Under the pieces are notes generated by a model. The model had not been told where the DNA came from. It saw only the letters and a program-made list of their open reading frames with translations, and did no database searches. From Escherichia coli (GTDB lineage: Bacteria > Pseudomonadota > Gammaproteobacteria > Enterobacterales > Enterobacteriaceae), in assembly GCF_044647545.1 (NCBI RefSeq), contig NZ_CP172818.1: 64,000 bases of DNA. The stretch is one strand, 5' to 3'. Position numbers and translations under genes: made by a program. Below, piece by piece: positions 1 to 20,803 of the stretch. Positions within the stretch are counted from its first letter, which is position 1, and each line of letters opens with the position of its first letter.

Positions 1-91
1 AAAAATCATGATTAACTATTTGATGTTATTAGATTAATTATTGACTAAGATTGTTGGTGTTTGTAATAAAAAAACCACTCAGGAGTCTGAT

Positions 92-946
92 ATGGATGCT
101 CTTAGCCGTTTGTTGATGCTTAACGCTCCACAAGGAACGATCGATAAGAATTGCGTGTTAGGAAGTGACTGGCAACTTCCACATGGTGCCGGGGAATTGT
201 CGGTTATTCGTTGGCATGCGTTAACGCAAGGAGCGGCGAAGCTGGAAATGCCGACGGGAGAGATTTTTACATTACGCCCGGGAAATGTGGTCCTGCTACC
301 ACAAAATTCAGCTCATCGCCTGAGTCATGTCGATAATGAATCGACCTGTATTGTCTGTGGCACTCTTCGACTGCAACATTCGGCGCGTTATTTTTTAACG
401 TCTTTGCCGGAAACGCTGTTTGTAGCACCAGTGAACCATAGCGTGGAATATAACTGGCTGAGGGAGGCGATCCCGTTTTTACAACAGGAATCCAGATCGG
501 CAATGCCGGGAGTGGATGCTCTGTGTAGCCAGATCTGCGCTACATTCTTTACCCTCGCGGTGCGTGAGTGGATTGCACAGGTTAATACAGAGAAAAACAT
601 TCTCAGTTTGCTTCTGCATCCACGTCTTGGTGCGGTAATACAGCAAATGCTGGAAATGCCAGGACACGCCTGGACCGTCGAATCGCTGGCCAGCATCGCC
701 CACATGTCCCGGGCAAGTTTTGCCCAGCTTTTCCGTGATGTTTCCGGAACCACGCCGCTGGCTGTATTAACAAAGTTGCGTCTACAAATAGCGGCCCAGA
801 TGTTTTCCCGGGAAACGCTCCCTGTTGTGGTGATCGCTGAGTCAGTAGGCTATGCCAGTGAATCATCTTTTCACAAGGCGTTTGTTCGCGAGTTTGGTTG
901 TACCCCGGGAGAATATCGGGAAAGGGTCAGACAGCTTGCACCCTGA
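92..946 (+). CDS. rclR: AraC-family transcriptional activator (reactive chlorine stress regulator RclR-like), 284 aa from internal ATG of track ORF 41..946
   Basis: ORF track 41..946; C-terminal AraC HTH region; ATG at 92 gives the expected length; synteny upstream of ykgEFG. Confidence 0.8.
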   Translation: MDALSRLLMLNAPQGTIDKNCVLGSDWQLPHGAGELSVIRWHALTQGAAKLEMPTGEIFTLRPGNVVLLPQNSAHRLSHVDNESTCIVCGTLRLQHSARYFLTSLPETLFVAPVNHSVEYNWLREAIPFLQQESRSAMPGVDALCSQICATFFTLAVREWIAQVNTEKNILSLLLHPRLGAVIQQMLEMPGHAWTVESLASIAHMSRASFAQLFRDVSGTTPLAVLTKLRLQIAAQMFSRETLPVVVIAESVGYASESSFHKAFVREFGCTPGEYRERVRQLAP

Positions 947-1471
947 ATAAAACCGCCAGAAATCAGGGCAAAGATAATCCGCATTCCGGGAGTTGTGAGC
1001 CTTTCAACTATTTCTATTTCCAACGGTGGTTTTGGGCTTTATATATTTTTTTGATGGACTCTAGCTCAGTTTTTAAATAAAAATGCAAACTAAATTGCTT
1101 CAATTAAATAAAATCCCGACTATTACTTGATGCGTGATTATTGTCGGTGATTTTTTTGTACACCATCAGTGTATATCTCAATAACCCCTGAATAAGTAGC
1201 TCTGAATAGGTATAAGGGGTGTAGCCTTTTTAAATGGATTTCTTATGCCAAAAATGATCGTCGATTTCCCTATAAAATGTGAGCGATGCCGAAAGAAATA
1301 AAATTAGTTATTGCATTTGAAGTTTAGATGAAAGATTATCATTTGTCATACAAATGAGGGGTGGTATGTTGCTAGCCAATTAAAAAAGAACGCCATATTT
1401 ATTGATGATTGATCCCCCGGAAGGGGGGAACCATCGGGCATAAATGGGCATGAAGTAATGGAGTATTAGTT

Positions 1472-2191
1472 GTGAATGTCAATTTCTTTGTCACCTGTAT
1501 TGGTGACGCCCTGAAATCAAGAATGGCACGAGACTCCGTGCTGCTACTGGAAAAACTCGGCTGTCGCGTAAATTTCCCGGAGAAACAGGGATGCTGCGGT
1601 CAGCCTGCGATCAATAGTGGTTATATCAAAGAAGCGATTCCAGGGATGAAAAATCTGATCGCCGCACTGGAGGATAACGACGCTCCCATTATTTCACCGG
1701 CTGGCTCTTGCACCTATGCCGTAAAAAGTTACCCGACGTATCTGGCGGATGAACCTGAATGGGCATCACGTGCCGAAAAGGTTGCCGCGCGTATGCAGGA
1801 TCTCACCTCTTTTATTGTTAATACATTAGGGGTAGTCGATGTAGGTGCCAGTTTGCAAGGGAGAGCGGTGTATCACCCATCTTGTAGCCTGGCCCGTAAG
1901 CTGGGGGTGAAGGACGAACCACTTACGCTGCTGAAAAATGTGCGTGGACTGGAGCTGTTGACCTTTGCTGAACAGGATACCTGCTGCGGATTTGGCGGCA
2001 CGTTCTCGGTCAAAATGGCCGAAATATCCGGCGAGATGGTGAAAGAAAAGGTTGTGCACCTGATGGAAGTCCGCCCTGAGTATTTAATTGGTGCTGACGT
2101 GAGTTGCCTGCTGAACATCAGTGGACGATTACAACGGGAAGGGCAGAAAGTCAAAGTGATGCATATTGCTGAAGTGCTGATGAGTCGCTGA
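1472..2191 (+). CDS. ykgE: LutA-like Fe-S oxidoreductase subunit (cysteine-rich CCG domains), GTG start
   Basis: ORF track 1472..2191, 239 aa; repeated CCG motifs; GGAG 8-11 nt upstream; forms ykgEFG operon. Confidence 0.85.
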   Translation: MNVNFFVTCIGDALKSRMARDSVLLLEKLGCRVNFPEKQGCCGQPAINSGYIKEAIPGMKNLIAALEDNDAPIISPAGSCTYAVKSYPTYLADEPEWASRAEKVAARMQDLTSFIVNTLGVVDVGASLQGRAVYHPSCSLARKLGVKDEPLTLLKNVRGLELLTFAEQDTCCGFGGTFSVKMAEISGEMVKEKVVHLMEVRPEYLIGADVSCLLNISGRLQREGQKVKVMHIAEVLMSR

Positions 2192-2201
2192 GGATATAAA
2201 G

Positions 2202-3629
2202 ATGTCGATCAAAACCAGTAATACAGATTTTAAGACACGCATCCGTCAGCAAATTGAAGATCCGATCATGCGCAAAGCGGTGGCAAACGCGCAGCAGCGT
2301 ATCGGGGCAAATCGGCAAAAAATGGTCGATGAATTGGGGCACTGGGAGGAATGGCGCGATCGGGCCGCCCAGATACGTGATCATGTTCTGAGTAATCTCG
2401 ACGCTTATCTGTACCAGCTCTCAGAAAAAGTGACGCAAAACGGCGGTCACGTCTATTTTGCAAAAACCAAAGAAGACGCTACCCGCTACATTTTACAGGT
2501 TGCCCAACGCAAAAATGCCCGGAAGGTGGTGAAATCTAAATCGATGGTGACCGAAGAGATTGGTGTCAATCATGTGTTGCAGGATGCTGGCATTCAGGTG
2601 ATTGAAACCGATCTGGGTGAATACATTCTCCAGCTGGATCAAGATCCGCCCTCTCATGTTGTGGTCCCGGCAATTCATAAAGATCGCCATCAGATCCGTC
2701 GAGTGCTACACGAACGTCTGGGCTATGAGGGGCCGGAAACGCCTGAAGCGATGACCTTATTCATTCGGCAAAAAATCCGCGAAGATTTCCTCAGTGCTGA
2801 AATAGGTATTACCGGCTGTAATTTCGCGGTGGCAGAGACCGGTTCGGTATGCCTGGTGACCAATGAAGGTAATGCGCGAATGTGTACCACGCTGCCTAAA
2901 ACGCATATTGCAGTGATGGGAATGGAGCGTATTGCCCCCACGTTTGCCGAGGTAGATGTATTGATCACCATGCTGGCGCGCAGTGCCGTTGGTGCACGTT
3001 TGACGGGATACAACACCTGGCTGACAGGACCGCGCGAAGCGGGGCACGTTGATGGTCCTGAAGAGTTTCATCTGGTTATTGTCGATAACGGGCGTTCTGA
3101 GGTGCTGGCCTCTGAATTTCGGGATGTGCTGCGCTGTATTCGCTGCGGGGCTTGTATGAATACTTGTCCGGCATATCGCCATATTGGCGGTCATGGATAT
3201 GGCTCTATTTATCCAGGGCCAATTGGTGCGGTGATTTCTCCGCTACTTGGCGGCTATAAAGATTTTAAAGATTTACCCTACGCCTGCTCTTTATGCACTG
3301 CTTGTGACAACGTGTGTCCGGTGCGTATTCCGCTGTCAAAACTGATTTTGCGTCATCGTCGGGTGATGGCTGAAAAAGGGATCACCGCAAAAGCAGAGCA
3401 ACGGGCGATAAAAATGTTCGCTTATGCCAATAGTCATCCAGGATTGTGGAAAGTCGGGATGATGGCCGGCGCTCATGCGGCAAGCTGGTTTATCAATGGC
3501 GGCAAAACACCACTCAAATTTGGCGCGATTAGCGACTGGATGGAAGCACGCGATCTTCCTGAAGCTGACGGAGAGAGTTTCCGTAGTTGGTTTAAGAAAC
3601 ATCAGGCGCAGGAGAAAAAGAATGGATAA
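2202..3629 (+). CDS. ykgF: LutB-like iron-sulfur protein (4Fe-4S ferredoxin-type, CxxCxxCxxxCP motifs)
   Basis: ORF track 2202..3629, 475 aa; two CxxCxxC clusters visible in translation. Confidence 0.85.
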   Translation: MSIKTSNTDFKTRIRQQIEDPIMRKAVANAQQRIGANRQKMVDELGHWEEWRDRAAQIRDHVLSNLDAYLYQLSEKVTQNGGHVYFAKTKEDATRYILQVAQRKNARKVVKSKSMVTEEIGVNHVLQDAGIQVIETDLGEYILQLDQDPPSHVVVPAIHKDRHQIRRVLHERLGYEGPETPEAMTLFIRQKIREDFLSAEIGITGCNFAVAETGSVCLVTNEGNARMCTTLPKTHIAVMGMERIAPTFAEVDVLITMLARSAVGARLTGYNTWLTGPREAGHVDGPEEFHLVIVDNGRSEVLASEFRDVLRCIRCGACMNTCPAYRHIGGHGYGSIYPGPIGAVISPLLGGYKDFKDLPYACSLCTACDNVCPVRIPLSKLILRHRRVMAEKGITAKAEQRAIKMFAYANSHPGLWKVGMMAGAHAASWFINGGKTPLKFGAISDWMEARDLPEADGESFRSWFKKHQAQEKKNG

Positions 3630-4317
3630 TCGGAGCGAATTTTTGAATAACGTTGCTCAGGCACTGGGTCGCCCGCAGCGACTTGAACCGCAAGCAGAAG
3701 ATGCGCCGCTAAACAACTATGCTAACGAGCGGCTTACCGAACTTAACCAACAGCAGCGCTGTGACGCGTTTATCCAGTTTGCCAGCGATGTTATGTTGAC
3801 GCGCTGTGAACTGACCAGCGAGGCGCAGGCCGCAGAAGCTGCAATACGTCTGTGTAAAGAGCTGGGAGATCAGTCGATCGTGATTAGCGGTGACACGAGG
3901 CTGGAGGAATTGGGGATTAGCGAACGTTTGCAGCAGGAATGCAATGTCGTTGTTTGGGATCCGGCGAAAGGTATTGAGAACATATCACAAGCAGAGCAGG
4001 CTAAAGTTGGCGTAGTGTATGCTGAATATGGTTTAACCGAATCGGGAGGCGTGGTTCTTTTTTCCGCCGCCGGGCGCGGGCGTTCATTGAGCCTGCTCCC
4101 GGAATCTTCTCTTTTTATCCTGCGTAAAAGCACTATCCTGCCGCGTGTAGCGCAACTCGCAGAAAAATTGCATCAGAAAGCGCAGGCCGGTGAACGAATG
4201 CCTTCCTGCATTAACATCATTAGCGGCCCCAGTTCAACGGCGGATATTGAGCTTATCAAAGTCGTCGGAGTTCATGGCCCGGTGAAAGCGGTGTATCTGA
4301 TTATTGAGGATTGTTGA
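3622..4317 (+). CDS. ykgG: LutC-like subunit, 231 aa from internal ATG overlapping ykgF stop by 8 bp
   Basis: ORF track 3475..4317; ATG at 3622 preceded by GGAG; operon context. Confidence 0.75.
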   Translation: MDNRSEFLNNVAQALGRPQRLEPQAEDAPLNNYANERLTELNQQQRCDAFIQFASDVMLTRCELTSEAQAAEAAIRLCKELGDQSIVISGDTRLEELGISERLQQECNVVVWDPAKGIENISQAEQAKVGVVYAEYGLTESGGVVLFSAAGRGRSLSLLPESSLFILRKSTILPRVAQLAEKLHQKAQAGERMPSCINIISGPSSTADIELIKVVGVHGPVKAVYLIIEDC

Positions 4318-4427
4318 GAGAGATATGAAGTCTGGACATAAACCTGAAGAAGGCATACGAGGTTGAAAATAGCGTTTAGGACAACCTGACTTAACCCCGT
4401 TCCGTCATGGTTATGCTGCTCTTCTGT

Positions 4428-4460
4428 AAATATCCTGGCATTACTAATGCCAGGATATTT
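4428..4460. other. Perfect 33-bp palindrome (15-bp arms, 3-bp loop) between convergent ykgG and ykgH
   Basis: AAATATCCTGGCATT-ACT-AATGCCAGGATATTT read directly; no U-rich tail on either strand. Confidence 0.6.
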
Positions 4461-4559
4461 AAAGTGAAAAAGACAGGCATCCATTCCTGAAAACGGGTTC
4501 CCTTCCCGGTCATTGTCACTTCAGCTTTATACAGGCACTCTCTATCAGAATGCTGTTTA

Positions 4560-5058
4560 TTACTGCCCAGAGTTTTGTTGGTATTCATCTACCATTTTTT
4601 TGACAAGGCAAAACATTACAGAAATCACAATGCTTAGAAAAAATCCCAGAATCAGGCAAATGGCAGCAGGATATTTACTTTTTATTTCCGGTGAGCTTAT
4701 GGTTACACAGTCATCACCGTTCGGATACAATGACCAGTTCCTGGTCAGGTATATCATTTTTGTATAAAGCTCACTGTTAATTGCTGAAGGTGTTTGTATC
4801 TCATCGAGAACTTGCCTGCCGTTATGGTATTCTGACGCATACCATTTGATAATAGACGCATGCACGCGAGATATTTCCGCTTCAGCAGTTGGTAAATCTC
4901 TCTTATCTCCTGACCATTCCAGCTTTATTTCTCGTATACAGAAACAACAGCACCATTGCCATACAGATAGCTATAATAAAAAGGATAATACGAATCTTTT
5001 TCTTCAGATAAAATAAAATCTCAATCAGATCGATATCCTGTTTGATTTGTTCACTCAT
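4560..5058 (-). pseudogene. ykgH: ykgH-like inner membrane protein, reading frame broken by a 1-bp shift near 4930-4945
   Basis: ATG at 5058 opens a 53-codon frame that stops at about 4900; C-terminal 101 aa are in another frame (track ORF 4560..4865); the two parts overlap around an A-run. Confidence 0.5.
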
Positions 5059-5251
5059 AATATATCCAGAAAATAAAATCTGCCGCAGATAAATGAATTA
5101 ATAGTCTGTATCAGGAATGTTCGGGTTAAATATCAGCAAAAAGCCAGCATCATGAATACTGGATATGAAGCATGAGAGTTACCTCAGTGTTTTATATAAG
5201 GATTCGGTCCTCATAGTAGAACGGTAACTCTCAATCTGATAGGTTCCTGAG

Positions 5252-6940
5252 TCAGTTCACATCACGACTCATTTTTTTCGCTCTCACCGGCATCCCATTT
5301 GCCACATAATATCCCGCCGTGCTCCTCGGCAACGCATCCTTCCCGCGAATCATATCCGCTATTTTCTCGCCAATCATAATGGTCGTGGCGTTCAAATTGC
5401 CGGTGATAATTTGCGGCATAATTGACGCATCCACCACGCGCAGGCCTTCCAGCCCGTGTACGCGGCCTTCGCCGTCAACCACTGCCATCTCGTCATAACC
5501 CATTTTGCAGGTACCGCACGGGTGGAAGGCGGTTTCGGCGTGGTTACGCACGAACTCATCGAGCTGCTCATCCGTCTGGCATTCGACACCGGGGCTGATT
5601 TCGCGGCCACGATACTGATCCAGCGCCGGTTGATGCATGATCTCCCGGGTGATGCGAATTGCGTCGCGGAACTCCTGCCAGTCCTGCTCGTGCGACATGT
5701 AGTTAAACAGAATCGCTGGATGCTGGTGCGGGGCGCGGGATTTAATCCGCACATGCCCACGGCTTGGCGAGCGCATCGATCCGACGTGGCACTGGAAGCC
5801 GTGCTCTTTCACTGCGTTCGAGCCGTTATAGTTAATCGCTACTGGCAGGAAATGGTACTGAATATTCGGCCACGCAAATTCCTCACGGCTGCGAATAAAT
5901 CCGCCTGCTTCAAAGTGGTTGCTGGCACCAATGCCGGTGCCGCCAAACAGCCACTCCGCACCGATTTTCGGCTGATTCCACCACTGCAGGGCAGGGTAGA
6001 GGGAAACCGGTTCTTTGCACTCATATTGCAGATACATCTCCAGGTGATCCTGAAGATTTTCGCCGACGCCAGGTAATTCATGCACCAGCGGAATATCAAA
6101 CTCCGCCAGCAGTTCAGCGTTGCCGACGCCGGAGCGTTGCAGGATCTGCGGTGAAGCAATCGCGCCTGCACATAACAGCACTTCTTTATTCGCCGCCGCG
6201 CGGGTCGGAATGGTGCTGTCGCCTTCCAGCCACTCGACGCCCACCGCGCGTTTGCCGTCAAAAATGATGTGATCGGTCATGGCGTGAGTACGAATAGTCA
6301 GGTTAGGGCGCGATTTGGCCTGATCGAGATAGCCACGCGCGGTGCTGGCGCGACGGCCATGCGGCGTGACGGTGCGATCCATCGGGCCAAAACCTTCTTG
6401 CTGATAGCCGTTGAGATCGTCCGTGCGCGGGTAGCCCGCCTGCACGCCCGCTTCAATCATCGCTTCAAACAGCGGATTGACGCCGGGTTTGGAGGTGGTG
6501 ACGCTCACCGGGCCATCACCGCCGTGGTAGTCGTTCTCGCCCACATCGCGAGTCTCGGCCTTGCGGTAGTAGGGCAGGCAGTCGAGATAACTCCAGTTCT
6601 CCAGACCAGGTTCTTGTGCCCAGTTATCGAGATCCAGCGCATTGCCACGGATGTAGCACATACCATTGATCAGCGATGAACCGCCCAGACCTTTGCCGCG
6701 TCCGCACTCCATGCGGCGGTTGTTCATAAACGGTTCGGGTTCCGTCTCATAGGCCCAGTTGTAGCGTTTGCCCTGTAACGGGAACGCCAGCGCGGCGGGC
6801 ATCTGGGTGCGGAAGTCAAAGCGATAGTCCGGGCCGCCTGCTTCAAGCAGCAGCACGGTTATGTTCGGATCTTCAGTCAGACGGGTAGCGAGGACGTTGC
6901 CGGCTGAGCCGGCACCAATAATGATGTAGTCAAATTGCAA
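5252..6940 (-). CDS. betA: Choline dehydrogenase (GMC oxidoreductase), TTG start 5 nt after AGGAGG
   Basis: ORF track 5252..6985; N-terminal FAD motif [11 protein letters not shown]; TTG at 6940 with strong SD. Confidence 0.9.
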
Positions 6941-6953
6941 ATAAACCTCCTGG

Positions 6954-8426
6954 TTAGAATATGGACTGGAATTTAGCCATCTCAACCTGGATGGACTTCA
7001 CCTGGGTGTAACTCTGGAGCGTCATCACGCCGTTCTCGCGACCAATGCCGGAGTGTTTGTAGCCGCCAACGGGCATCTCTGCCGGGGATTCGCCCCAGGT
7101 GTTGATCCAGCAAATACCCGCTTCCAGCTGATGAATGACGCGATGCGCGCGGTTCAGGTCCGCCGTCACGATACCCGCCGCCAGACCGTAGTCGGTATCG
7201 TTAGCGCGGCGAATGACTTCGTCTTCCGACTCGTAGGTCAGAATGGACATCACCGGCCCGAAAATCTCTTCGCGCACGATGGTCATTTCGTCGCGGCAAT
7301 CGGTGAACACGGTCGGTGCAACCCATGCGCCGTTATCGAAGCCATCGCCTTTCAGTACATCGCCGCCGCACAGTACGCGCGCGCCTTCCTCTTTGCCTTT
7401 GGCGATATAGCGCAGCACGTTATCGCGATGCGGGAAGCTGACCAGCGGGCCGAAGTTAGTTTGCGGATCGAAAACGTCGCCCGCGCGAATGCGCTCAACG
7501 CGCGCCAGAATCTTTTGTTCAAATGCGGCTTTGCATTTCGTCGGAACGAAGACGCGAGTGCCGTTGGTACACACCTGACCGGAGCTGAAGAAATTCGCCA
7601 TCATGGCGATATCGGCGGCGAGATCGAGATCCGCATCGTCAAAAACGATCAGCGGTGATTTACCGCCCAGCTCCATGGTCACTTCTTTCAGGGAAGAGGC
7701 CGCCGAGTTAGCCATCACTTTTTTGCCGCTGGCGACACCGCCGGTAAATGACACTTTGGCAATGCCCGGATGCTCGGTCAGATACTGCCCGGTTTCCGCA
7801 CCTACGCCCGGCAGCACGTTAAATACGCCGTCCGGCAGGCCCGCTTCGCTGTAAATGTCGGCCAGCTTTAACGCGGTAAGCGGGGTGACTTCGCTCGGTT
7901 TGAAAATCATCGCGTTGCCTGCCGCCAGCGCCGGTGCGGATTTCCACAAGGCAATCTGGATCGGGTAGTTCCATGCGCCAATCCCTGCCACTACGCCCAG
8001 CGGTTCGCGGCGGGTATAAACAAATGACGTCTCACGCAATGGGATCTGGCTGCCTTCCAGCGCCGGGATCAGCCCGGCGTAGTACTCCAGCACGTCCGCA
8101 CCGGTAACGATATCGACGGTTGATGTTTCCGAATACGCTTTTCCGGTGTCGAGGGTTTCCAGTTTTGCGAGTTCGTCATTGCGTTCACGCAGAATATCAA
8201 CGGCCCGACGCAGAATACGCGAGCGTTCCATAGCGGTCATCGCCGCCCAGATTTTTTGCCCCTGTTGGGCACTCTTCACGGCGCGATCGACATCCTCACG
8301 CCCGGCGGCCTGCACGGTCGCCAGCACGTTACCGTTGGCCGGGTTAATGGTCTCGAAGGTGCGACCGCTGGTGGCGGAGGTATAACCACCATGTATATAA
8401 AGCTGCTGTTCTGCCATTCGGGACAT
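6954..8426 (-). CDS. betB: Betaine aldehyde dehydrogenase
   Basis: ORF track 6954..8429, aldehyde dehydrogenase family sequence, 490 aa from second Met. Confidence 0.9.
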
Positions 8427-8439
8427 CACGTCTCCTCGG

Positions 8440-9027
8440 TTAATCGGTGGGTAAATGCTGAGTAATAAAGTGACGGGTCAGCGAGTGTGCGAGAGGTTTA
8501 TCCAGCGGTTTGCCGCTCAGTGCCGCGCGCAGCCATAATCCGTCAATCAGCGCGGCAAGGCCGTAGCCCGCTTCCTGTGCCTGGTGGCGCGGTAACTCGC
8601 GGTGAAATTCGCTCACCAGATTCGACAACAAGCGGCGGCTGCTCACCTGCTGCAAACGGTAAAGCATCGGCTGATGCATACTGCTGGCCCAAAACGCCAA
8701 CCAGGCTTTCATCGCAGCATTACTGACCTGCGTTTCATCGAAATTCCCGTCAACAATCGCCTGTAATCGCTGCTCTGGGCTACCATCCGTTAGCGCGTGT
8801 AATCGATTCAAAACCGCGTCACGCAGCTGACTGGTGATATCGCGCATGGTTGCTTCCAGCAGACCATTTTTGTCCCTGAAATAGTGGCTGATGATCCCCG
8901 TAGAAACGCCTGCACGGCGGGCGATCTGCGCGATCGTTGCATCGTGCATGCCCACTTCATTTATTGCTTCCAGCGTGGCGTCGATCAGTTGTCTGCGCCG
9001 GATCGACTGCATCCCCAATTTGGGCAT
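8440..9027 (-). CDS. betI: TetR-family repressor of the bet regulon
   Basis: ORF track 8440..9045; ATG at 9027 gives 195 aa; N-terminal HTH. Confidence 0.9.
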
Positions 9028-9071
9028 TTTCGCCACTCCATTCATCAGCGTTGTTTATCTATTAAAGCGGT

Positions 9072-9091
9072 TATTGATTGGACGTTCAATA
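9072..9091. promoter_or_regulatory. Inverted repeat TATTGA-N8-TCAATA in the divergent betI/betT promoter region; candidate BetI operator
   Basis: Palindrome read directly between divergent betI and betT starts. Confidence 0.4.
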
Positions 9092-9155
9092 TAAAATGTG
9101 TCTTAATTGTTACGAGTTTGATTTTAAATGGTAACAATAACAGTGGGGATACTGG

Positions 9156-11189
9156 ATGACAGACCTTTCACACAGCAGGGAAAAGGACAAAATCAATCCG
9201 GTGGTGTTTTACACTTCCGCCGGACTGATTTTGTTGTTTTCCCTGACAACGATCCTGTTTCGCGACTTCTCGGCCCTGTGGATTGGCCGCACGCTGGACT
9301 GGGTCTCTAAAACCTTCGGTTGGTACTATCTGCTGGCGGCAACGCTCTATATTGTCTTTGTGGTCTGTATCGCTTGTTCGCGTTTTGGTTCGGTGAAGCT
9401 CGGGCCAGAACAATCAAAACCGGAATTCAGTCTGCTGAGTTGGGCGGCGATGCTGTTTGCTGCCGGGATCGGTATCGACCTGATGTTCTTCTCCGTAGCC
9501 GAACCGGTCACGCAGTATATGCAGCCGCCGGAAGGCGCGGGTCAGACGATTGAGGCCGCGCGTCAGGCGATGGTCTGGACGCTGTTTCACTACGGCTTAA
9601 CCGGCTGGTCGATGTATGCGCTGATGGGCATGGCGCTCGGATACTTTAGCTATCGTTATAATTTGCCGCTCACCATCCGCTCAGCGCTGTACCCGATCTT
9701 CGGTAAACGGATTAACGGGCCGATAGGTCACTCAGTGGATATTGCAGCGGTGATCGGCACCATCTTCGGTATTGCCACTACGCTCGGTATTGGTGTGGTG
9801 CAGCTTAACTATGGCTTGAGCGTACTGTTTGATATTCCCGATTCAATGGCGGCGAAAGCGGCACTGATCGCCTTGTCGGTGATCATCGCAACGATCTCTG
9901 TCACCTCCGGTGTCGATAAGGGCATTCGCGTGTTATCGGAACTTAACGTTGCGCTGGCGCTGGGGTTGATCCTGTTTGTGCTGTTTATGGGCGACACCTC
10001 GTTCCTGCTTAATGCGCTGGTGCTGAACGTTGGCGACTATGTGAATCGCTTTATGGGCATGACGCTCAACAGTTTTGCCTTCGACCGTCCGGTTGAGTGG
10101 ATGAATAACTGGACGCTCTTCTTCTGGGCATGGTGGGTGGCATGGTCGCCGTTTGTCGGCTTGTTCCTGGCGCGTATCTCGCGTGGGCGTACCATTCGCC
10201 AGTTCGTGCTGGGCACGTTGATTATTCCGTTTACCTTCACGCTGTTATGGCTCTCGGTATTCGGCAATAGCGCGCTGTATGAAATCATCCACGGCGGCGC
10301 GGCATTTGCCGAGGAAGCGATGGTCCATCCGGAGCGCGGCTTCTACAGCCTGCTGGCGCAGTATCCGGCGTTTACCTTTAGCGCCTCCGTCGCCACCATT
10401 ACTGGCCTGCTGTTTTATGTGACCTCGGCGGACTCCGGGGCGCTGGTGCTGGGGAATTTCACCTCGCAGCTTAAAGATATCAACAGCGACGCCCCCGGCT
10501 GGCTGCGCGTCTTCTGGTCGGTGGCGATTGGCCTGCTGACGCTAGGCATGCTGATGACCAACGGGATATCCGCGCTGCAAAACACCACGGTGATTATGGG
10601 CCTGCCGTTCAGCTTTGTGATCTTCTTCGTGATGGCGGGGTTGTATAAATCTCTGAAGGTAGAAGATTACCGCCGTGAAAGTGCCAACCGCGATACCGCG
10701 CCGCGACCGCTGGGGCTTCAGGATCGCCTGAGCTGGAAAAAACGTCTCTCGCGCCTGATGAATTATCCGGGCACGCGTTACACTAAACAGATGATGGAGA
10801 CGGTCTGTTATCCGGCAATGGAAGAAGTGGCGCAGGAACTGCGGTTGCGCGGCGCGTACGTGGAGCTAAAAAACCTGCCGCCGGAAGAGGGACAACAGTT
10901 GGGGCATCTGGATTTGTTGGTGCATATGGGCGAAGAGCAAAACTTTGTCTATCAGATTTGGCCGCAGCAATATTCGGTGCCGGGCTTTACCTACCGCGCA
11001 CGTAGCGGGAAATCGACCTACTACCGGCTGGAAACCTTCCTGTTAGAAGGCAGCCAGGGCAACGACCTGATGGACTACAGCAAAGAGCAGGTGATCACCG
11101 ATATTCTTGACCAGTACGAGCGGCATCTTAACTTTATCCATCTCCATCGTGAAGCGCCGGGCCATAGCGTGATGTTCCCGGACGCGTGA
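9156..11189 (+). CDS. betT: Choline transporter (BCCT family)
   Basis: ORF track 9156..11189, 677 aa, multi-TM BCCT-like sequence. Confidence 0.9.
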   Translation: MTDLSHSREKDKINPVVFYTSAGLILLFSLTTILFRDFSALWIGRTLDWVSKTFGWYYLLAATLYIVFVVCIACSRFGSVKLGPEQSKPEFSLLSWAAMLFAAGIGIDLMFFSVAEPVTQYMQPPEGAGQTIEAARQAMVWTLFHYGLTGWSMYALMGMALGYFSYRYNLPLTIRSALYPIFGKRINGPIGHSVDIAAVIGTIFGIATTLGIGVVQLNYGLSVLFDIPDSMAAKAALIALSVIIATISVTSGVDKGIRVLSELNVALALGLILFVLFMGDTSFLLNALVLNVGDYVNRFMGMTLNSFAFDRPVEWMNNWTLFFWAWWVAWSPFVGLFLARISRGRTIRQFVLGTLIIPFTFTLLWLSVFGNSALYEIIHGGAAFAEEAMVHPERGFYSLLAQYPAFTFSASVATITGLLFYVTSADSGALVLGNFTSQLKDINSDAPGWLRVFWSVAIGLLTLGMLMTNGISALQNTTVIMGLPFSFVIFFVMAGLYKSLKVEDYRRESANRDTAPRPLGLQDRLSWKKRLSRLMNYPGTRYTKQMMETVCYPAMEEVAQELRLRGAYVELKNLPPEEGQQLGHLDLLVHMGEEQNFVYQIWPQQYSVPGFTYRARSGKSTYYRLETFLLEGSQGNDLMDYSKEQVITDILDQYERHLNFIHLHREAPGHSVMFPDA

Positions 11190-11203
11190 TTGTTTTTGCA
11201 TAA

Positions 11204-11240
11204 AACCGCGCCATGTCTGCATATGGCGCGGTTTCTCTTA
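11204..11240 (+). terminator. Rho-independent terminator downstream of betT
   Basis: GC-rich stem AACCGCGCCAT / ATGGCGCGGTT with 8-nt loop followed by TCTCTT, 15 nt after betT stop. Confidence 0.6.
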
Positions 11241-12064
11241 CCTCTTGATACGTTATATCTGTACAGTTAAGCCCTTAGTATCGATTGATGATTGCCAGGC
11301 AACAGATAATAAAAAAGAAAAGAACTATTGAAGCCCAAAACCTACGTTTGGACTGTTGTGAATGTTCAATAAGCTTAGTCTTATTTAATGTAAATATTGG
11401 TGCTAATTTGAAATGACGCTTTATTCATGGGGAACGCGTAGCGCAAATCAACTAAAATCAATGTAACCGTTTGTTGTTTAAGGTTTAATTGTCTGTGTCT
11501 GATATTTTATTGATTGTTTTAAATATTGTTTTTATTGTCATTGTTATAATGTTGGCTATCTATTGCTGAATGGATTCAGTCTTAAAAAGCAGGTTGTTAA
11601 GAGATAGGCATAGAGTAATGACGTGTATGCATAACCAACATCTTTACTCATTATGTCATTGAATGTTGACGCTATGTGTTTATGAGGTTGAGGTATTTTC
11701 AGTTGATCTGGATTGTTAAATTCATATAATGCGCCTTTACTCATGAATGGGCGTCAATACGTAGTGGGAAATTATAAATATCGAAATAGTCCAACTACTT
11801 CTTTATTACCAAAAATGAGTATCTGAATTTTAATATTGCATTCTTGCGTGATTATCTCCTGAGTTTGACTTGTGATTACCTTTTTAAGGTATTTAGCGTA
11901 ACTGTTTTTGAGCGAGCATCAGAGGTAAAGATAATCTTCTTGATAGTGATGTGGGATGTTATACGTATGGCATCGCTAATGTTTATGGTTACCCCTTATG
12001 TGTGCTCAGGAATCCACAGGTAATCACTCATACTGAACAGCGATAAAAGATAAAAGGTGTGTTC

Positions 12065-13153
12065 ATGAATTCATGTGATTTTCGTGTTTTTCTGCAAGAG
12101 TTCGGTACAACGGTTCATTTGTCATTGCCTGGTAGCGTATCCGAGAAAGAACGACTGCTACTCAAGCTGCTGATGCAGGGAATGTCTGTAACAGAAATAT
12201 CACAGTACAGAAATCGCAGTGCAAAGACCATTTCACATCAAAAGAAACAGCTCTTTGAGAAACTGGGGATTCAGAGCGATATTACTTTCTGGCGGGATAT
12301 TTTCTTTCAGTACAATCCGGAGATCATATCCGCCACGGGTAATAATAGTCACAAATATATTAATGATAATCACTATCACCATATCGTCACGCCTGAAGCC
12401 ATCAGTCTGGCGTTGGAAAACCATGAATTTAAACCGTGGATCCAACCGGTTTTCTGCGCGCAGACTGGGGTACTGACGGGCTGTGAGGTGCTTGTTCGCT
12501 GGGAACATCCGCAAACGGGAATTATCCCACCGGATCAGTTTATTCCTCTGGCGGAGTCATCTGGTCTTATCGTCATAATGACTCGCCAGCTGATGAAACA
12601 GACTGCGGATATTCTGATGCCAGTAAAACATTTGCTGCCGGATAATTTCCATATTGGTATCAACGTCTCGGCGGGCTGTTTTTTGGCTGCGGGATTTGAA
12701 AAAGAGTGTCTGAACCTGGTTAAGAAATTAGGTAACGATAAAATCAAACTGGTTCTCGAGTTAACGGAACGTAACCCTATTCCGGTAACGCCAGAAGCCA
12801 GAGCGATATTTGACAGCCTTCATCAGCACAACATTACCTTTGCGCTGGATGACTTTGGTACGGGTTATGCAACCTATCGTTACTTGCAGGCGTTCCCGGT
12901 CGATTTTATTAAGATCGATAAGTCATTTGTGCAAATGGCGAGCGTGGACGAAATATCCGGTCATATTGTGGACAATATTGTCGAACTGGCGCGTAAGCCT
13001 GGTCTGAGTATCGTGGCGGAAGGGGTAGAAACCCAGGAGCAGGCGGATTTAATGATCGGCAAAGGCGTTCACTTTTTGCAGGGCTATTTGTACTCTCCGC
13101 CAGTACCGGGTAATAAATTTATCTCTGAATGGGTAATGAAAGCCGGTGGTTGA
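12065..13153 (+). CDS. pdeL: c-di-GMP phosphodiesterase with LuxR-type HTH and EAL domain
   Basis: ORF track 12059..13153; ATG at 12065; EAL motif (ELTE) present; long AT-rich upstream region. Confidence 0.85.
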   Translation: MNSCDFRVFLQEFGTTVHLSLPGSVSEKERLLLKLLMQGMSVTEISQYRNRSAKTISHQKKQLFEKLGIQSDITFWRDIFFQYNPEIISATGNNSHKYINDNHYHHIVTPEAISLALENHEFKPWIQPVFCAQTGVLTGCEVLVRWEHPQTGIIPPDQFIPLAESSGLIVIMTRQLMKQTADILMPVKHLLPDNFHIGINVSAGCFLAAGFEKECLNLVKKLGNDKIKLVLELTERNPIPVTPEARAIFDSLHQHNITFALDDFGTGYATYRYLQAFPVDFIKIDKSFVQMASVDEISGHIVDNIVELARKPGLSIVAEGVETQEQADLMIGKGVHFLQGYLYSPPVPGNKFISEWVMKAGG

Positions 13154-13194
13154 TGTAAACCGCTATTCACAGCGCATCGGGAGGTTGGCAGCGA

Positions 13195-14127
13195 TTAATT
13201 CTCCCGATGCAGTAAATCCTGATAGATCCCCGTTAATATGCCATTTGGCGCAAATTGTTTTTTAATCCACTGCGTCACCTGACCGGTGGCAGAGTGCTGG
13301 GTCGCCAGTAACATGCGTGAATCCTGGCGCGGATTATGGATTTGTCGGGTAACCAGCAGGGATTGCGCCATCGCCTCACGGACCATGTAATCCGGCAAAA
13401 AACCAATTCCTTCGCCTAAAATCTGGCACTGACATTTGGTGTTGAAATCTGGCACCAGAATCGACTCCTGCCCATGCAGCAACCAGCCCACTTTTTTATT
13501 AATCGTATGCGCGGTGTCTTCCACCATGATATTAGGGTAGAGACGCAGCTGGCTTTCGGCGATGGGTTCCGGCACAAAGGCTAACGGGTGATCCGGGGCG
13601 ATAGCAAAAGCCCAGCGAATCGCGCCAATCTCCGTGTAATCAATGCCGCCGCCGTCCAGCAGTGTGTCGGGCGCGCCGATAGCAATATTCGCCTGATTAT
13701 TAATAATCGCATCCCAGACGCCGTTATACACTTCGGTGGTGACGGTAATCTGGCAGGTAGGAAACTGCTTTTTCAGCACCTGTAATAAGCGTGCGGTGTG
13801 TTTGGGCGTATAAAGCAGCTGATTAATACAAATGCGCACACGCGCTTCTATGCCCTGCGAAATAGTATCGATACTGCGTTTAATGGCATGAAAATCATTC
13901 AGCAGGTCGGTAGCTTTGCGGAAAAAATAACGCCCGGACTCCGTTAACTCAATGCTGCGGGTACTGCGAGTGAACAGCACCACATCCAGCCCCGTCTCCA
14001 TACGTTTAATGGTGTAGCTAATGGCGGAAGTGGTTAAACCCAACTCTTCTGCGGCTTTACTGAAGCTGCCAAAACGCGCAGCGGTAGTAAATGCCAACAG
14101 ATTCTCTTCGGTAAAAATTGAGTTCAT
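13195..14127 (-). CDS. yahB: LysR-family transcriptional regulator
   Basis: ORF track 13195..14127, 310 aa, N-terminal LysR HTH. Confidence 0.85.
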   Translation of the reverse strand: MNSIFTEENLLAFTTAARFGSFSKAAEELGLTTSAISYTIKRMETGLDVVLFTRSTRSIELTESGRYFFRKATDLLNDFHAIKRSIDTISQGIEARVRICINQLLYTPKHTARLLQVLKKQFPTCQITVTTEVYNGVWDAIINNQANIAIGAPDTLLDGGGIDYTEIGAIRWAFAIAPDHPLAFVPEPIAESQLRLYPNIMVEDTAHTINKKVGWLLHGQESILVPDFNTKCQCQILGEGIGFLPDYMVREAMAQSLLVTRQIHNPRQDSRMLLATQHSATGQVTQWIKKQFAPNGILTGIYQDLLHREN

Positions 14128-14218
14128 TGACCCGCTCCCGCCATTTTCGATTCTGAATTTCTCCAGCCATGACTGTAGAGGTATCCATTAAAGATGGATA
14201 ATCATTTTTGAATAACTT

Positions 14219-14716
14219 TTAATACCCGTCGCTTTTGGTCGTCGCTTCGCTTAATTTTTGTCCGCCGTATTCTGAAATTATCCCCACGCAGTTACCCGCC
14301 AGAAAACCCAGTAATGTCACCGTCCAGTTCATCCCGCTGGCAAAAAATAGCGTCATGCCGAGAAAGCCCCCGGGAATAAAAGACAGTAACCAGAAACGTC
14401 CTTGCCAGACCACCACCGCCGAGAAGGGTACAGTCATAATCACGCTCGCCCAGAACGTGGACAATCCACTCACCGAGGCCAGCCAACCGGCAGCCAGCGC
14501 GGCGAAAAACGCCCACACCATCCCGGAATAATTAACCGCCAGGCTTCTGATAAACCCCGATTTACCGCCGCCTGCGGCATAAAAACTGCAAAAGGCGACG
14601 AAGCCAATGGTTCCTAATAATTCCCATCCCTGAGAGAGCCCGACATGTGAAGACACTAACTGCCAAAGCCCTGCACAAATACCGACGGTGACACCCGTTG
14701 CCGTGAGTCCGTTCAT
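14219..14716 (-). CDS. yahC: Small inner membrane protein
   Basis: ORF track 14219..14716, 165 aa, hydrophobic. Confidence 0.75.
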   Translation of the reverse strand: MNGLTATGVTVGICAGLWQLVSSHVGLSQGWELLGTIGFVAFCSFYAAGGGKSGFIRSLAVNYSGMVWAFFAALAAGWLASVSGLSTFWASVIMTVPFSAVVVWQGRFWLLSFIPGGFLGMTLFFASGMNWTVTLLGFLAGNCVGIISEYGGQKLSEATTKSDGY

Positions 14717-14973
14717 CTTGTTCCCCTCTGGTTAGACATGGACGAAAGCTACTCTTACATGTGCAGACTATAGAGAAATAAAACCTGATTGAGTGAAAGG
14801 GTATCGGGTCAAAGAAACAAATATTGCACTACCGCACACTGCGAAAAGATTGTTGAACATCATTCAACAAAAAGGCGAAATACGGCGAATTAAATTTAAG
14901 CGGGTTCTTTTATCAGATTATCGTTGCTATTCGCAATTCATCGAAAACAGCCACAAAAACCAGGGGAATGTGA

Positions 14974-15575
14974 ATGAGTATAAAAAATCTACCTGCCGAC
15001 TATTTATTGGCTGCACAACAGGGTGATATCGATAAAGAAAAACCTGCCTTGCGCTGGGTGTCGATATTAATACCTGCGATCGTCAGGGGAAAACGGCAAT
15101 TACGCTGGCAAGTTTATATCAGCAATATGCTTGCGTTCAGGCATTAATTGATGCCGGAGCGGATATTAATAAGCAAGATCATACTGTTTAAATCCTTTTT
15201 TAATTAGCTGTCTGAACGATGATTTAACGCTACTACGAATTATTTTACCGGCTAACCCGATCTTAATTGCGTAACCCGTTTTGGCGGTGTCGGCCTGACG
15301 CCTGCCTGTGAAAAAGGCCATTTAAGTATTGTAAAAGAGCTTTTGGCGCATACGGAAATTAACGTTAACCAGACCAACCATGTAGGCTGGACGCCGCTAC
15401 TGGAAGCGATTGTGCTTAATGATGGCGGTATTAAACAGCAGGCGATTGTCCAGTATTGCTGGAACATGGTGCCAGTCCGCATCTGACGGATAAATATGGC
15501 AAAACGCCGCTGGAACTGGCGCGGGAACGGGGCTTTGAAGAGATTGCGCAGTTACTGATTGCCGCAGGCGCATAA
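14974..15575 (+). pseudogene. yahD: Ankyrin-repeat protein gene with about four 1-bp deletions
   Basis: ATG at 14974 reads MSIKNLPADYLLAAQQGDIDK then stops; ankyrin-repeat peptide segments recur in shifted frames up to TAA at 15573-15575; span is 602 bp, not a multiple of 3. Confidence 0.65.
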
Positions 15576-15585
15576 CCCGGGAGGC

Positions 15586-16465
15586 TTGCTATCAACACAC
15601 CAGAAAGACGGTGTGTGTGGGCCGCAACTGCGGATGCGGGATTTTCTGGCGCAGCGGGGGCAAGGACAGGTTGAACAGGTCTTTGCCAGAGCGGTAAATA
15701 TCGCACTCCCGGCCGCCAGCAGTTGCTGACGCTGCTTTGTGAAGAGTACGACAATGCGCCAAACAGTTGTCGGTTGGCATCACTCACTTTGATGTCTTTC
15801 GGCATGGTGATAAGGTTCAGTTTGACGATCAAGGCATTACGGTTGGTCAACATCTTCATATAGAGATACGAGTCGTTGTCGGCGTTGGCTGTCCCCAACC
15901 TTGCAAATGACCGCTGTGAATTTTCACCTTATCGCCTGGCTACAGTGGCACGACATTATTCATCAGCACCTGGGGGAAAATGAAACCCTGTTTAATTATC
16001 GCGGCGATAATCCGTTTTATCAGGCGTTAGGTAAAGAATTACATATTAAACGACGGGCAGTTATTCAGGCCGTAAACGATAAACAAAATATCGCCTCAGC
16101 GGTCGCCAGTATGATGGGGTTAGGGATTGGCCTTACGCCATCAGCCGACGATTATTTAACAGGTCTGGCGCTTATTTTATTTATTCCCGGCATCCGGCGG
16201 AAAAATACAAAGAGGAATTTTATCTCGGTCTGCAACGCGGCAAAAATAATACCACATTATTAAGTGCCATAACGCTGGAAGCCGCATTACAACAACGCTG
16301 CCGGGAAAATATTCATCGTTTTATTCACAACATTATTTATGACATCCCTGGGAAAAACCCCGAACTCAGGCAATAGAAAAAATTAAACATATTGGCTCCA
16401 GTTCCGGCTGCGACATGCTGTATGGCATGGCCGATGGTTGTGCGCTGAGCCAAACCTACGGAGGG
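15586..16465 (+). pseudogene. yahE: yahE-like gene, frame fragmented; boundaries approximate
   Basis: Only a 120-aa fragment (track ORF 15901..16263) survives between yahD and yahF; position matches yahE. Confidence 0.35.
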
Positions 16466-16469
16466 AATT

Positions 16470-18009
16470 ATGTCAGTTAAAATAGTCATTAAACCGAATA
16501 CCTATTTTGATTCTGTCTCGCTGATGTCTATCTCCACGCGTGCAAATAAACTCGACGGCGTCGAGCAGGCATTTGTGGCGATGGCGACCGAAATGAATAA
16601 AGGCGTGCTGAAGAATTTAGGACTGCTGACGCCGGAGCTGGAGCAGGCGAAAAACGGCGACCTGATGATTGTCATCAATGGTAAATCGGGTGCGGACAAC
16701 GAGCAGTTGCTGGTGGAGATTGAAGAACTGTTCAACACCAAAGCGCAAAGCGGCTCGCACGAGGCGCGTTACGCCACTATTGGCAGCGCCAAAAAGCATA
16801 TCCCGGAAAGTAACCTGGCGGTGATTTCGGTCAACGGTCTGTTTGCCGCTCGCGAAGCGCGTCAGGCGCTGCAAAACGATCTCAACGTGATGCTGTTTTC
16901 CGATAACGTCTCAGTTGAAGATGAACTGGCGCTCAAGCAACTGGCCCACGAAAAAGGGCTGCTGATGATGGTTAGACTGTGGCACGGCGATTATCAACGG
17001 CGCGGCGCTCTGTTTTGGTAACGCCGTGCGTCGCGGCAACATCGGTATTGTTGGCGCATCCGGCACCGGCAGTCAGGAGTTGAGCGTCCGCATTACTTAA
17101 TTTGGCGGCGGCGTTTCGCAACTGATCGGCACCGGCGGGCCAGCCTGAGCGAGAAATTGGCGGCCTGATGATGCTCGACGCCATCGGGATGCTGGAAAAC
17201 GATCCGCAAACTGAAATCATTGCGCTTATCTCCAAACCGCCTGCGCCTGCGGTGGCCCGCAAAGTGCTGGAACGTGCGCGCGCCTGCCGCAAGCCGGTGG
17301 TCGTCTGCTTCCTCGATCGTGGCGAAACGCCAGTGGATGAGCAGGGGCTACAGTTTGCCCGCGGCACCAAGAGGCAGCGCTAAAAGCGGTGATGCTCTCC
17401 GGCGTGAAACAGGAAAATCTCGACCTGCATACGCTTAACCAGCCGTTGATTGCGGATGTGCGTGCGCGTCTGCAACCGCAGCAGAAATACATTCGTGGCC
17501 TGTTCTGCGGCGGCACGCTGTGCGACGAAACCATGTTCGCGGTGATGGAAAAACATGGCGATGTCTACAGCAACATTCAGCCCGATCCGGAATTCCGCCT
17601 GAAAGATATCAACCGCAGCATCAAACACACCTTCCTCGACTTTGGCGATGACGACTTCACCAACGGCAAGCCGCACCCGATGATTGACCCCACCAACCGC
17701 ATCAGTCGCTTGATCGAAGAGGCGCGCGATCCAGAAGTGGCGGTGATCATGGATTTTGTGCTCGGATTTGGATCGCATGAAGATCCGGTCGGCTCCACCA
17801 TCGAGACGATCAAAGAAGCGAAAGCGATCGCCGCTGCCGAAGGACGCGAGTTGATCATTCTCGCCTATGTGCTGGGTACCGATCTTGATACGCCATCGTT
17901 AGAACAACAAAGCCAGATGCTGCTTGATGCCGGAGTGATTCTGGCGAGCAGCAGCACCAATACCGGATTGCTGGCGCGTGAATTTATCTGCAAAGGGGAG
18001 GAAGCCTGA
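16470..18009 (+). pseudogene. yahF: Succinyl-CoA synthetase alpha-like (CoA-binding) protein gene, split into at least 3 frames
   Basis: Track ORFs 16470..17021, 17168..17383 and 17389..18009 lie in frames 0, 2 and 1 and read as consecutive parts of one protein. Confidence 0.65.
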
Positions 18010-19427
18010 TGAGCCAGTCACTGTTTAGCCAACCATTGAACGTTATTAACGTCGGCATCGCCATGTTTAGCGATGACCTGAAAAAGCAGCATGTAGAAGT
18101 GACTCAACTCGACGGGACGCCGCCGGGGCAGGGCAATATGCAGGTGGTGCAGGCGCTGGATAACATTGCCGATCTTGCCGCTGGCGGACAAAATCGCCGC
18201 CGCTAACCAGCAGGCGCTGGAGCGTATTATCCAGTCGCATCCGGTGCTGATTGGTTTTGATCAGGCGATTAACGTGGTGCCGGGCATGACGGCGAAAACC
18301 ATTCTTCACGCCGGGCCGCCGATCACCTGGGAAAAAATGTGCGGCGCGATGAAAGGCGCGGTCACCGGAGCGCTGGTGTTCGAAGGACTGGCGAAGATCT
18401 CGACGAGGCGGCTGAACTGGCGGCTTCCGGGGAGATCACCTTCTCGCCGTGTCACGAGCACGACTGTGGGATCGATGGCGGGTGTTACCTCGGCCTCGAT
18501 GTTTATGCACATCGTAAAAAACAAAACCTACGGCAACATCGCTTATACCAACATGAGCGAGCAGATGGCGAAGATTTTGCGTATGGGCGCTAACGACCAG
18601 AGCGTGATTGACCGCCTGAACTGGATGCGTGATGTGCAGGGACCAATACTGCGCGACGCGATGAAAATTATCGGCGAAATCGATCTGCGCTTAATGCTGG
18701 CGCAGGCGCTGCGGATAGGGCGATGAGCGCCATAACCGCAATAACGCCGGGACGACACTGCTGATTCAGGCGCTGACGCCGGGGATTATTCAGGCGGGTT
18801 ATTCCGTCGAGCAACAGCGCGAAGTGTTTGAGTTTGTCGCCAGCAGCGACTACTTCTCCGGCCCGACGTGGATGGCGATGTGTAAAGCGGCGATGGATGC
18901 GGCGCATGGCATCGAATACAGCACCGCGGTCACCACCCATGGCGCGTAACGGCGTCGAGTTCGGCATGCGGGTCAGCGGCCTGCGGGGTAATGGTTCAAC
19001 CGGCCCGGCGCAGCAGGTGATCGGCCCGATGTTTGCCGGTTATAAGCCGGAAGATTCGGGGCTGGATATCGGCGACAGCGCCATCACCGAAACCTACGGT
19101 ATTGGCGGATTTGCTATGGCGACCGCGCCCGCTATCGTCGCGCTGGTGGGCGGCACGGTGGAAGAAGCTATTGATTTCTCCCGTCAGATGCGCGAAATCA
19201 CCCTCGGTGAAAACCCCAACGTCACCATTCCGCTGCTCGGTTTTATGGGCGTGCCGTCGGCAATCGACATCACCCGCGTGGGTAGCAGCGGCATTCTGCC
19301 GGTGATCAACACCGCCATCGCCCATAAAGATGCGGGCGTCGGCATGATTGGCGCGGGCATTGTGCATCCACCTTTTGCCTGCTTCGAGAAAGCCATTCTT
19401 GGCTGGTGCGAACGTTACGGCGTCTGA
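18009..19427 (+). pseudogene. yahG: yahG-like (DUF1116) gene with an internal +1 frame segment
   Basis: Track ORFs 18009..18206 (frame 0), 18166..18726 (frame 1) and 18828..19427 (frame 0); total span 1419 bp, a multiple of 3. Confidence 0.6.
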
Positions 19428-19440
19428 CCTACATGTTCAT

Positions 19441-19799
19441 GCCGGATGCGGCGTGAACGCCTTATCCGGCCTACGAATGGCGCAAGAATCTGTAGGCCTG
19501 ATAAGCGTAGCGCATCAGGCATTTGTCACCATTGCCGGATGCGGCGTGAACGCCTTATCCGGCCTACGAATGGCGCAAGAATCTGTAGGCCTGATAAGCG
19601 TAGCGCATCAGGCATTTGCCACCACTGCCGGATGCGGCGTGGACGCCTTATCCGGCCTACGAGTGGCGCGAGAATCTGTAGGCCTGATAAGCGTAGCGCA
19701 TCAGGCATTTGTCACCATTGCCGGATGCGGCGTGAACGCCTTATCCGGCCTACGAGTGGCGCGAGAATTGTAGGCCTGATAAGCGTAGCGCATCAGGCA
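19441..19799. repeat. BIME/REP array, about 3.9 tandem units of 93 bp, each with two REP palindromes
   Basis: Units begin at 19441, 19534, 19627 and 19720 with near-identical sequence GCCGGATGCGGCGTGAACGCCTTATCCGGCCTAC...GTAGGCCTGATAAGCGTAGCGCATCAGGC. Confidence 0.85.
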
Positions 19800-19848
19800 G
19801 TCTGGCGTTGGTCATAACCCCATCACCCTCTGTAGCGGACATAACAAC

Positions 19849-20803
19849 ATGAAAGAGCTTGTGGTCGTTGCCAATGGTGGCAACAGCATTATAGAAAGAT
19901 AACGCCAGCCAGTCGATTGAGCATCAGGCGGAGGCGGTGAAAGCCGTGGCCGATACGGTGCTGGAAATGCTGGCTTCCGATTACGACGTGCTGACCCACG
20001 GTAACGGGCCGCAGGTCGGCTAAGATACGCCGTGCGGAGATTGCCCACGAGCGCGAAGGGCTGCCCTTAACGCCGCTGGCGAACTGTGTGGCAGATACGC
20101 AGGGCGGCATCGGCTATCTGATCCAACAGGCGCTGAATAACCGGCTGGCGCGTCACGGCGAGAAAAAAGCCGTCACCGTGGTAACTCAGGTGGAAGTGGA
20201 TAAAAACGATCCAGGTTTTGCCCATCCACCAAGCCCATTGGTGCATTCTTCAGTGAAAGCCAGCGTGACAAACTACAAAAGGCAAACCCTGACTGGTGTT
20301 TTGTTGAAGATGCCGGACGGGGCTATCGCCGCGTGGTCGCCTCGCCGGAACCGAAACGTATTGTCGGCACCACCATCGCGCGCTGGAGAGATCCAACAAG
20401 GTTTTGTCGTAATTGGCGCGGGCGGCGGTGGAATTCCGGTAGTGCGTACTGAAGCGGGGGATTACCAGAGCGTGGACGCGGTTATTGACAAAGATCTCTC
20501 TACCGCGCTGCTTGTCGCCGTGAAATTCACGCCGACATTCTGGTGATCACCACCGGCGTCGAAAAAGTCTGTATCCACTTTGGTAAACCGCAGCAGCAGG
20601 CGCTGGATCGGGTGGATATTGCCACCATGACTCGCTATATGCAGGAAGGGCATTTTCCGCCCGGCGGCGTGTTGCCAAAAATCATCGCCAGCCTGACGTT
20701 CCTGGAGCAGGGCGGCAAAGAAGTGATTATCACCACGCCGGAATGCCTGCCTGCGGCGCTGCGCGGTGAAACGGGCACCCATATTCTAAACGTAAGGACG
20801 TAG
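19849..20803 (+). pseudogene. yahI: Carbamate kinase-like gene, frameshifted
   Basis: ATG at 19849 reads MKELVVVANGGNSIIER then stops; downstream fragments (track ORFs 20088..20546 and 20543..20803) carry carbamate kinase-like sequence in other frames. Confidence 0.6.

Follow-up and report, generated by a model that had tools for sequence, protein, structure and literature searches.

The stretch of Escherichia coli DNA analysed here, referred to as the window, is 64,000 nucleotides long and contains, between betA and ykgG (lutC) and on the betA strand, a gene that is divided between two reading frames. Because it is flanked by these two neighbours, the split gene can be placed at the E. coli ykgH locus, as the first-pass annotation had proposed from the letters of the DNA; the parts of the gene that are kept are also similar to annotated ykgH at both the nucleotide and the protein level. 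The features of the locus are as follows.

4560 to 5058, minus strand: the ykgH remnant, 499 bp, equivalent by alignment and synteny to a short (168-bp-deleted) allele minus 2 further bases.
4903 to 5058, minus strand: the 5′ ORF, 51 codons and a stop, consisting of the N-terminus, the first transmembrane segment and then 10 out-of-frame residues (TRNKAGMVRR).
4560 to 4934, minus strand: the rest of ykgH, read in the shifted frame over 124 codons and a stop, with the putative periplasmic remainder and the second transmembrane segment.
4931 to 4940, minus strand: the lesion, TGTATACGAG in place of the short allele's TGTATAACAGAG, combining the junction of the 168-bp deletion with a 2-bp net loss.
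4921 to 4932, minus strand: the A-rich 12-mer GAGAAATAAAGC, unchanged in a three-way alignment.
5252 to 6985, minus strand: betA, the neighbour on one side.
Ending at 4317, plus strand: ykgG/lutC, the neighbour on the other side.

Translation of the minus strand from the ATG at 5058 gives MSEQIKQDIDLIEILFYLKKKIRIILFIIAICMAMVLLFLY and then ten unrelated residues before the stop. In the second frame, the sequence reads REIKLEWSGDKRDLPTAEAEISRV from 4934 and runs on to VDEYQQNSGQ, with the stop at 4562-4560; the 124 codons of this piece, from REIKLEWSG at the start to QQNSGQ at the end, are identical to residues 43-166 of a 166-aa allele. Kyte-Doolittle hydropathy, computed in 19-residue windows with a threshold of 1.6, places a hydrophobic segment in the first ORF, where windows above the threshold begin at residues 20-26. 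The earlier description of a hydrophobic N-terminus that opens at 5058 and stops early, with the protein going on in another frame from about 4935, thus agrees with the translation and the hydropathy profile, in which the homologous frame restarts at 4934; the early end of the N-terminal ORF stands, but its length of 53 codons has to be corrected to 51 codons and a stop. What is missing from the locus is a single intact ORF, either the canonical one of 222 aa or the short one of 166 aa, as the 51- and 124-codon pieces lie in different frames.

YkgH is an uncharacterised, dispensable protein, predicted to lie in the inner membrane with two transmembrane segments, and its gene serves as a neutral integration locus. 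Some sources label YkgH as a polysaccharide co-polymerase, and it appears to share with the Wzz/FepE proteins an N-terminal motif with a first transmembrane segment, a periplasmic stretch and a C-terminal transmembrane segment, along with weak Pfam matches. Every one of these matches falls below the curated gathering threshold that was taken as the limit for family membership: Pfam Wzz (PF02706) scores 16.5 bits with the full-length protein, 15.6 with the short protein and 20.2 with the 51-aa piece against a cutoff of 25.5, Pfam GNVR (PF13807) scores 12 bits against 27.7, and TIGR01006 scores 15.9 bits against 296. A sequence search of the PDB with YkgH returned no match. In hydropathy, the protein consists of two hydrophobic segments around an intervening stretch, and it is, we assume, much shorter than the Wzz proteins. 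The resemblance to polysaccharide co-polymerases, as far as the sequence suggests it, is a weak lead rather than membership.

The range of intact ykgH alleles was surveyed by a megablast search, with the ykgH locus of the window as the query and 5,426 complete E. coli genomes as the target. Matches were found in 5,211 of them, mostly as two pieces spanning about 170 bp more than the query. The canonical gene, as in strain SCU-102 and in K-12 (b0310), is 669 bp long and encodes 222 aa. The K-12 gene (NP_414844.1, 'uncharacterized protein YkgH') resembles that of the window in its position between betA and ykgG, in a nucleotide identity of about 95-98% in the kept parts and in its two hydrophobic segments, whose 19-residue windows start at residues 20-26 and 184-196; the gene in the window differs in being short by 170 bp (168 + 2) and in occupying two frames, and it cannot encode 222 aa. 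The closest relatives carry a short allele of 501 bp, an in-frame CDS of 166 aa annotated as 'hypothetical protein', and include FDAARGOS_497, IAI39, CE10, ST648, MS6198, ECONIH1 and others; in FDAARGOS_497 (NZ_CP033850.1) the allele occupies 2,676,323-2,676,823. We take the strains with this allele (IAI39, CE10, the ST648 type, FDAARGOS_497 and their kin) to belong to phylogroup F. A three-way alignment of the window with the 501-bp allele of FDAARGOS_497 and the 669-bp allele of SCU-102 shows that the 168 bp missing from the short allele are codons 42-97, which correspond to the membrane-proximal part between the two hydrophobic segments. With a 40-mer able to seed only across the junction, the in-frame short form was found in 89 of the 5,426 complete genomes, always as a CDS annotated as intact, and at least 1,000 contigs are recorded as carrying the 166-aa sequence of the FDAARGOS_497 allele. 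The ends of the 168-bp deletion share just 1 bp of microhomology.

A different disruption of ykgH, apparently natural, is present in E. coli E200086 (NZ_CM128605.1, 1706-2205 of the extracted locus). There the gene can be aligned with ykgH as far as nucleotide 260 or so of the CDS, after which the alignment resumes only at the 3′ end; a 1-bp gap lies near the start, and the annotation gives a partial pseudogene and an ORF of 65 aa.

The gene in the window is also 168 bp below the length of canonical ykgH, a point that the first-pass annotation had missed. Outside the junction it is the short allele of FDAARGOS_497 base for base, and both lack codons 42-97. The DNA of the short alleles (WP_022645243.1 in FDAARGOS_497, WP_000003127.1 in IAI39) is thus identical except at the junction, where they have TATAACAGAG and the window has TATACGAG, a net difference of 2 bp that puts the gene in the window out of frame. 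In the short allele codon 41 is joined to codon 98, TGTATA being followed by ACAGAG; in the window the same position reads TGTATACGAG, with the deletion shared and 2 more bases absent. Read from 4940 to 4921, the window has TGTATACGAGAAATAAAG where the short allele has TGTATA followed by ACAGAGAAATAAAG. The loss of the two bases aligns as two 1-bp gaps on either side of one kept base.

This geometry bears on the location of the frame change, which had been put within the homopolymer-rich GAGAAATAAAGC (4932-4921) and read as a frameshift in an A-run. A single-base slip in this 12-mer, perhaps as a phase-variable or sequencing-prone run, would suit a region that is A-rich and a frame change that occurs a few bases away. 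The 12-mer is invariant among the window, the short allele and the full-length allele, its longest A run is 3 bases, and the net change is of 2 bases and lies just 5′ of it; no mononucleotide run differs in length from the in-frame alleles, as a homopolymer-slippage or phase-variable tract would require. As the 12-mer is unchanged and no homopolymer is altered, the A-run reading fails, and the chance that slippage of this kind made the frameshift is close to nil. Instead, the lesion is complex: a net 2 bp are lost just where the flanks of a lineage-specific in-frame deletion of 168 bp meet.

Other simple routes to the junction were considered and set aside. A single mis-placed deletion straight from full-length ykgH is ruled out, since removing any 170 contiguous bp from the K-12 or the SCU-102 gene fails to give TATACGAG. 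Deletion between the two copies of the AATAAAG direct repeat is excluded as well: the copies are separated by 173 bp, and the junction falls outside them. By eye, the deletion junction of the short allele (window 4931-4950; about 1815-1835 in the extracted locus of a relative) makes a small quasi-palindrome, CTGT-ATA-ACAG, which can be extended to TTTCTGT...ACAGAGAAA with a 2-nt bulge. Templated correction at this quasi-palindrome was set aside, the variant in the window being no more palindromic.

Alignment with homologues, the check that the first-pass annotation had itself suggested, indicates that the split is not the normal structure of the gene. The junction of the window was found in none of the 5,426 complete E. 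coli genomes by a 40-mer search, nor in any contig of a metagenome contig collection searched with a 30-mer across the junction; a programmed frameshift or a normally split gene would keep the frame change in other genomes, and it is kept in none of those searched. The truncated 51-aa product, carrying MSEQIKQDIDLIEILFYLKKKIRIILFIIAICMAMVLLFLYTRNKAGMVRR, has one record only, on an NCBI contig.

The sequence around ykgH can be assigned to parental types by a three-way comparison of the window, FDAARGOS_497 and K-12 MG1655 at discriminating sites. From 26 to 14,879, the window is of FDAARGOS_497 type at 466 of 467 sites, and from 41,578 to 63,969 at all 518, so that the two flanks combined carry the FDAARGOS_497 allele at 984 of 985 sites and the K-12 allele at one. 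Alignment of positions 1-14,900 with FDAARGOS_497 reveals 3 substitutions and the ykgH lesion and nothing else, and between 42 kb and 64 kb there are zero substitutions. The intervening 26 kb (14,978-41,301; yahD to lacA, with the 3′ end of lacY) are of K-12 MG1655 type or mixed: identity to MG1655 is 100% in kb 26-27 and 35-40, while kb 20-21 and 29-34 mix alleles of both parents with unique changes. The boundaries of the chimera lie in the yahC-yahD spacer and in the 3′ part of lacY.

The FDAARGOS_497-type blocks add up to 37 kb, in which the alignment of the window with K-12 breaks at exactly four places: at the 168 bp of ykgH, between mhpE and mhpT (about 390 bp), between yaiL and frmB (one REP unit) and in yaiX, where K-12 has IS2A (1,331 bp, target duplication ATTAC). 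Relative to FDAARGOS_497, the window has only four indel differences in the same 37 kb, and these are located at the four K-12 breakpoints. The small window-specific indels thus coincide with parental structural differences at four sites out of four, and for the two sites outside REP sequence (ykgH and yaiX) alone the probability of coincidence by chance is about 5e-7. The three scars other than that of ykgH are listed below.

60053 to 60060, no strand assigned: the yaiX scar, CGCATAATTAC changed to CGAAATTAC, a 2-bp net loss located 1-2 bp from the ATTAC target site of the K-12 IS2A.
54197 to 54211, no strand assigned: the scar in the mhpE-mhpT REP spacer, 5 bp (GCGGC) lost relative to FDAARGOS_497, at the place where K-12 has about 390 extra bp.
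56203 to 56301, no strand assigned: a garbled, deletion-riddled REP stretch between yaiL and frmB, unlike both FDAARGOS_497 (one unit) and K-12 (two units).

The yaiX scar frameshifts the yaiX-like acetyltransferase gene beside yaiP into ORFs of 121 aa and 87 aa. Its form is like that of the ykgH scar, two 1-bp gaps around one kept base, and its junction is likewise absent from all 5,426 genomes.

These data can be set against a genuine, strain-specific pseudogenisation of ykgH, by which a further complex mutation would have struck the junction of the 168-bp deletion, either as two 1-bp deletions or as a 2-bp deletion plus a substitution, leaving pieces of 51 aa and roughly 101-124 aa. The lesion is, after all, present in the sequence as given, the surrounding 15 kb are otherwise clean, and ykgH is non-essential and has been independently disrupted in other lineages (for example E200086); a real inactivating mutation in a gene that is dispensable and disrupted elsewhere would therefore be unremarkable. 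Against this, the lesion is unique with respect to 5,426 genomes, and it would be a complex mutation of a rare type. It also lies 0-3 bp from a structural difference between K-12 and the other parent, as does the only further indel in coding sequence across the 37 clean kb, and two double-deletion frameshifts exceed what would be expected from a background of 3 substitutions relative to FDAARGOS_497 in 15 kb. Natural pseudogenisation is regarded as unlikely, though it is the chief alternative to an artefact.

Parts of the K-12-type segment of the window are plainly noisy. In kb 15-19, the mismatches per kb number only 3-10 and the indel bases 4-14, and between 15,000 and 22,500, on a background that is near K-12, ORFs of at least 200 aa have almost all disappeared. 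The indel bases number 4 in yahD, 16 in yahE, 8 in fdrA/yahF, 10 in yahG, 22 in yahI and 7 in yahJ, and all six genes are broken by indels of 1-3 bp. An indel-to-substitution ratio near one is not expected of natural bacterial pseudogene decay and is typical of sequence or consensus noise. As indel bases rival substitutions in the yahD-yahJ block, natural decay is ruled out there, and the block looks like sequence noise. An origin of the 1-bp deletions in ambiguous SNP positions that had been dropped is also ruled out, because 17 of the 21 deleted bases lie at positions for which K-12 and FDAARGOS_497 have the same letter. Among the 5,426 E. coli genomes, no better natural donor for the noisy blocks was found above 97.8% for 15,000-22,500 or above 97.4% for 28,900-31,000.

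Between 28,980 and 34,900 (prpB to prpE, codB), alleles of K-12 and FDAARGOS_497 type alternate at nearly every site, unique substitutions and indels are present as well, and prpC, prpD, prpE and codB have no full-length ORFs in the window. One feature of this region stands out.

29235 to 29290, no strand assigned: C17 and A11 tracts, the C17 replacing ATAAAAC (including the prpB stop codon) and the A11 replacing AAA 25 bp further on.

With the prpB stop removed by the C17 tract, the ORF at 28348 to 29304 reads through. At the site of the two tracts, K-12 is longer by 405 bp of REP sequence between prpB and prpC. Both tracts, like the garbled REP stretch between yaiL and frmB, are further signs of noise.

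A recombinational origin would turn the scars into traces of a real hybrid between K-12 and an FDAARGOS_497-type strain, in which loops formed in heteroduplex DNA at large heterologies were repaired in an error-prone manner. The crisp parental blocks and the presence of scars at all four heterologies are what such an event might leave behind, but K-12 alleles at 1 of 985 sites in the scar-bearing blocks give no sign that K-12 DNA ever paired there, and the patches in which indels are about as frequent as substitutions, together with the C17 and A11 tracts, are left unexplained; we consider this origin highly improbable. A reading in which the 2-bp losses are genuine in vivo events, owed either to the junction quasi-palindrome CTGT-ATA-ACAG as a local mutation hotspot or to a true recombinant with mutagenic repair scars beside every large heterology, is very unlikely.

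The 2-bp frameshift in ykgH is probably a scar of assembly or consensus building in which K-12-like sequence was involved, and not a mutation of the organism. The indels match the parental structural differences one to one and the yaiX scar is alike in form, which makes a scar the most likely account of the ykgH frameshift. K-12 alleles are nearly absent from these blocks, and a cell therefore cannot 'know' where K-12 differs in structure, whereas a computation that aligns K-12-like sequence can. According to this scheme, K-12-like sequence would have entered the computation of the genome, either as the template for mapping or among contaminating or polishing data, and alignments that break at large indels would leave or create small errors beside them. 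The NCBI contig that encodes the truncated product is 4,499,902 bp long, smaller than K-12 (4,641,652 bp) and far smaller than FDAARGOS_497 (5,231,450 bp), a size that fits a K-12-templated consensus.

The pattern is similar to the reference-bias and polishing artefacts of templated assemblies, in which small spurious indels flank each of the large structural differences from a second genome, stretches identical to the template take turns with stretches identical to the sample, and repeats stay unpolished. It differs in that no one nameable method accounts for the C17 and A11 tracts or for the K-12-type patches dense in indels. Some observations weigh against an assembly or consensus artefact: no simple rule or named pipeline reproduced the exact ykgH scar, ykgH sits in a clean block and not in a noisy one, two of the four coincidences are in REP regions, which vary naturally between strains, and divergence from K-12 alone does not predict which blocks are messy, kb 8-11 being equally divergent and clean. 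Weighed together, the split ykgH is most likely not a real biological feature.

As the window is chimeric and patchily noisy, its other frameshifts and odd tracts are likely to be artefacts too, and the split genes, homopolymer tracts and 'decayed operons' that it appears to contain, including yahD to yahJ, prpB to prpE, codB and the yaiX-like acetyltransferase gene, should be treated as suspect pending checks at the level of the reads. For the biology of E. coli, the split ykgH carries small weight, the gene being uncharacterised and dispensable and its short in-frame allele being annotated already in dozens of genomes. If the scar is computational in origin, the living strain would keep an intact 501-bp ORF, the ordinary in-frame short allele that would encode a YkgH of 166 aa.
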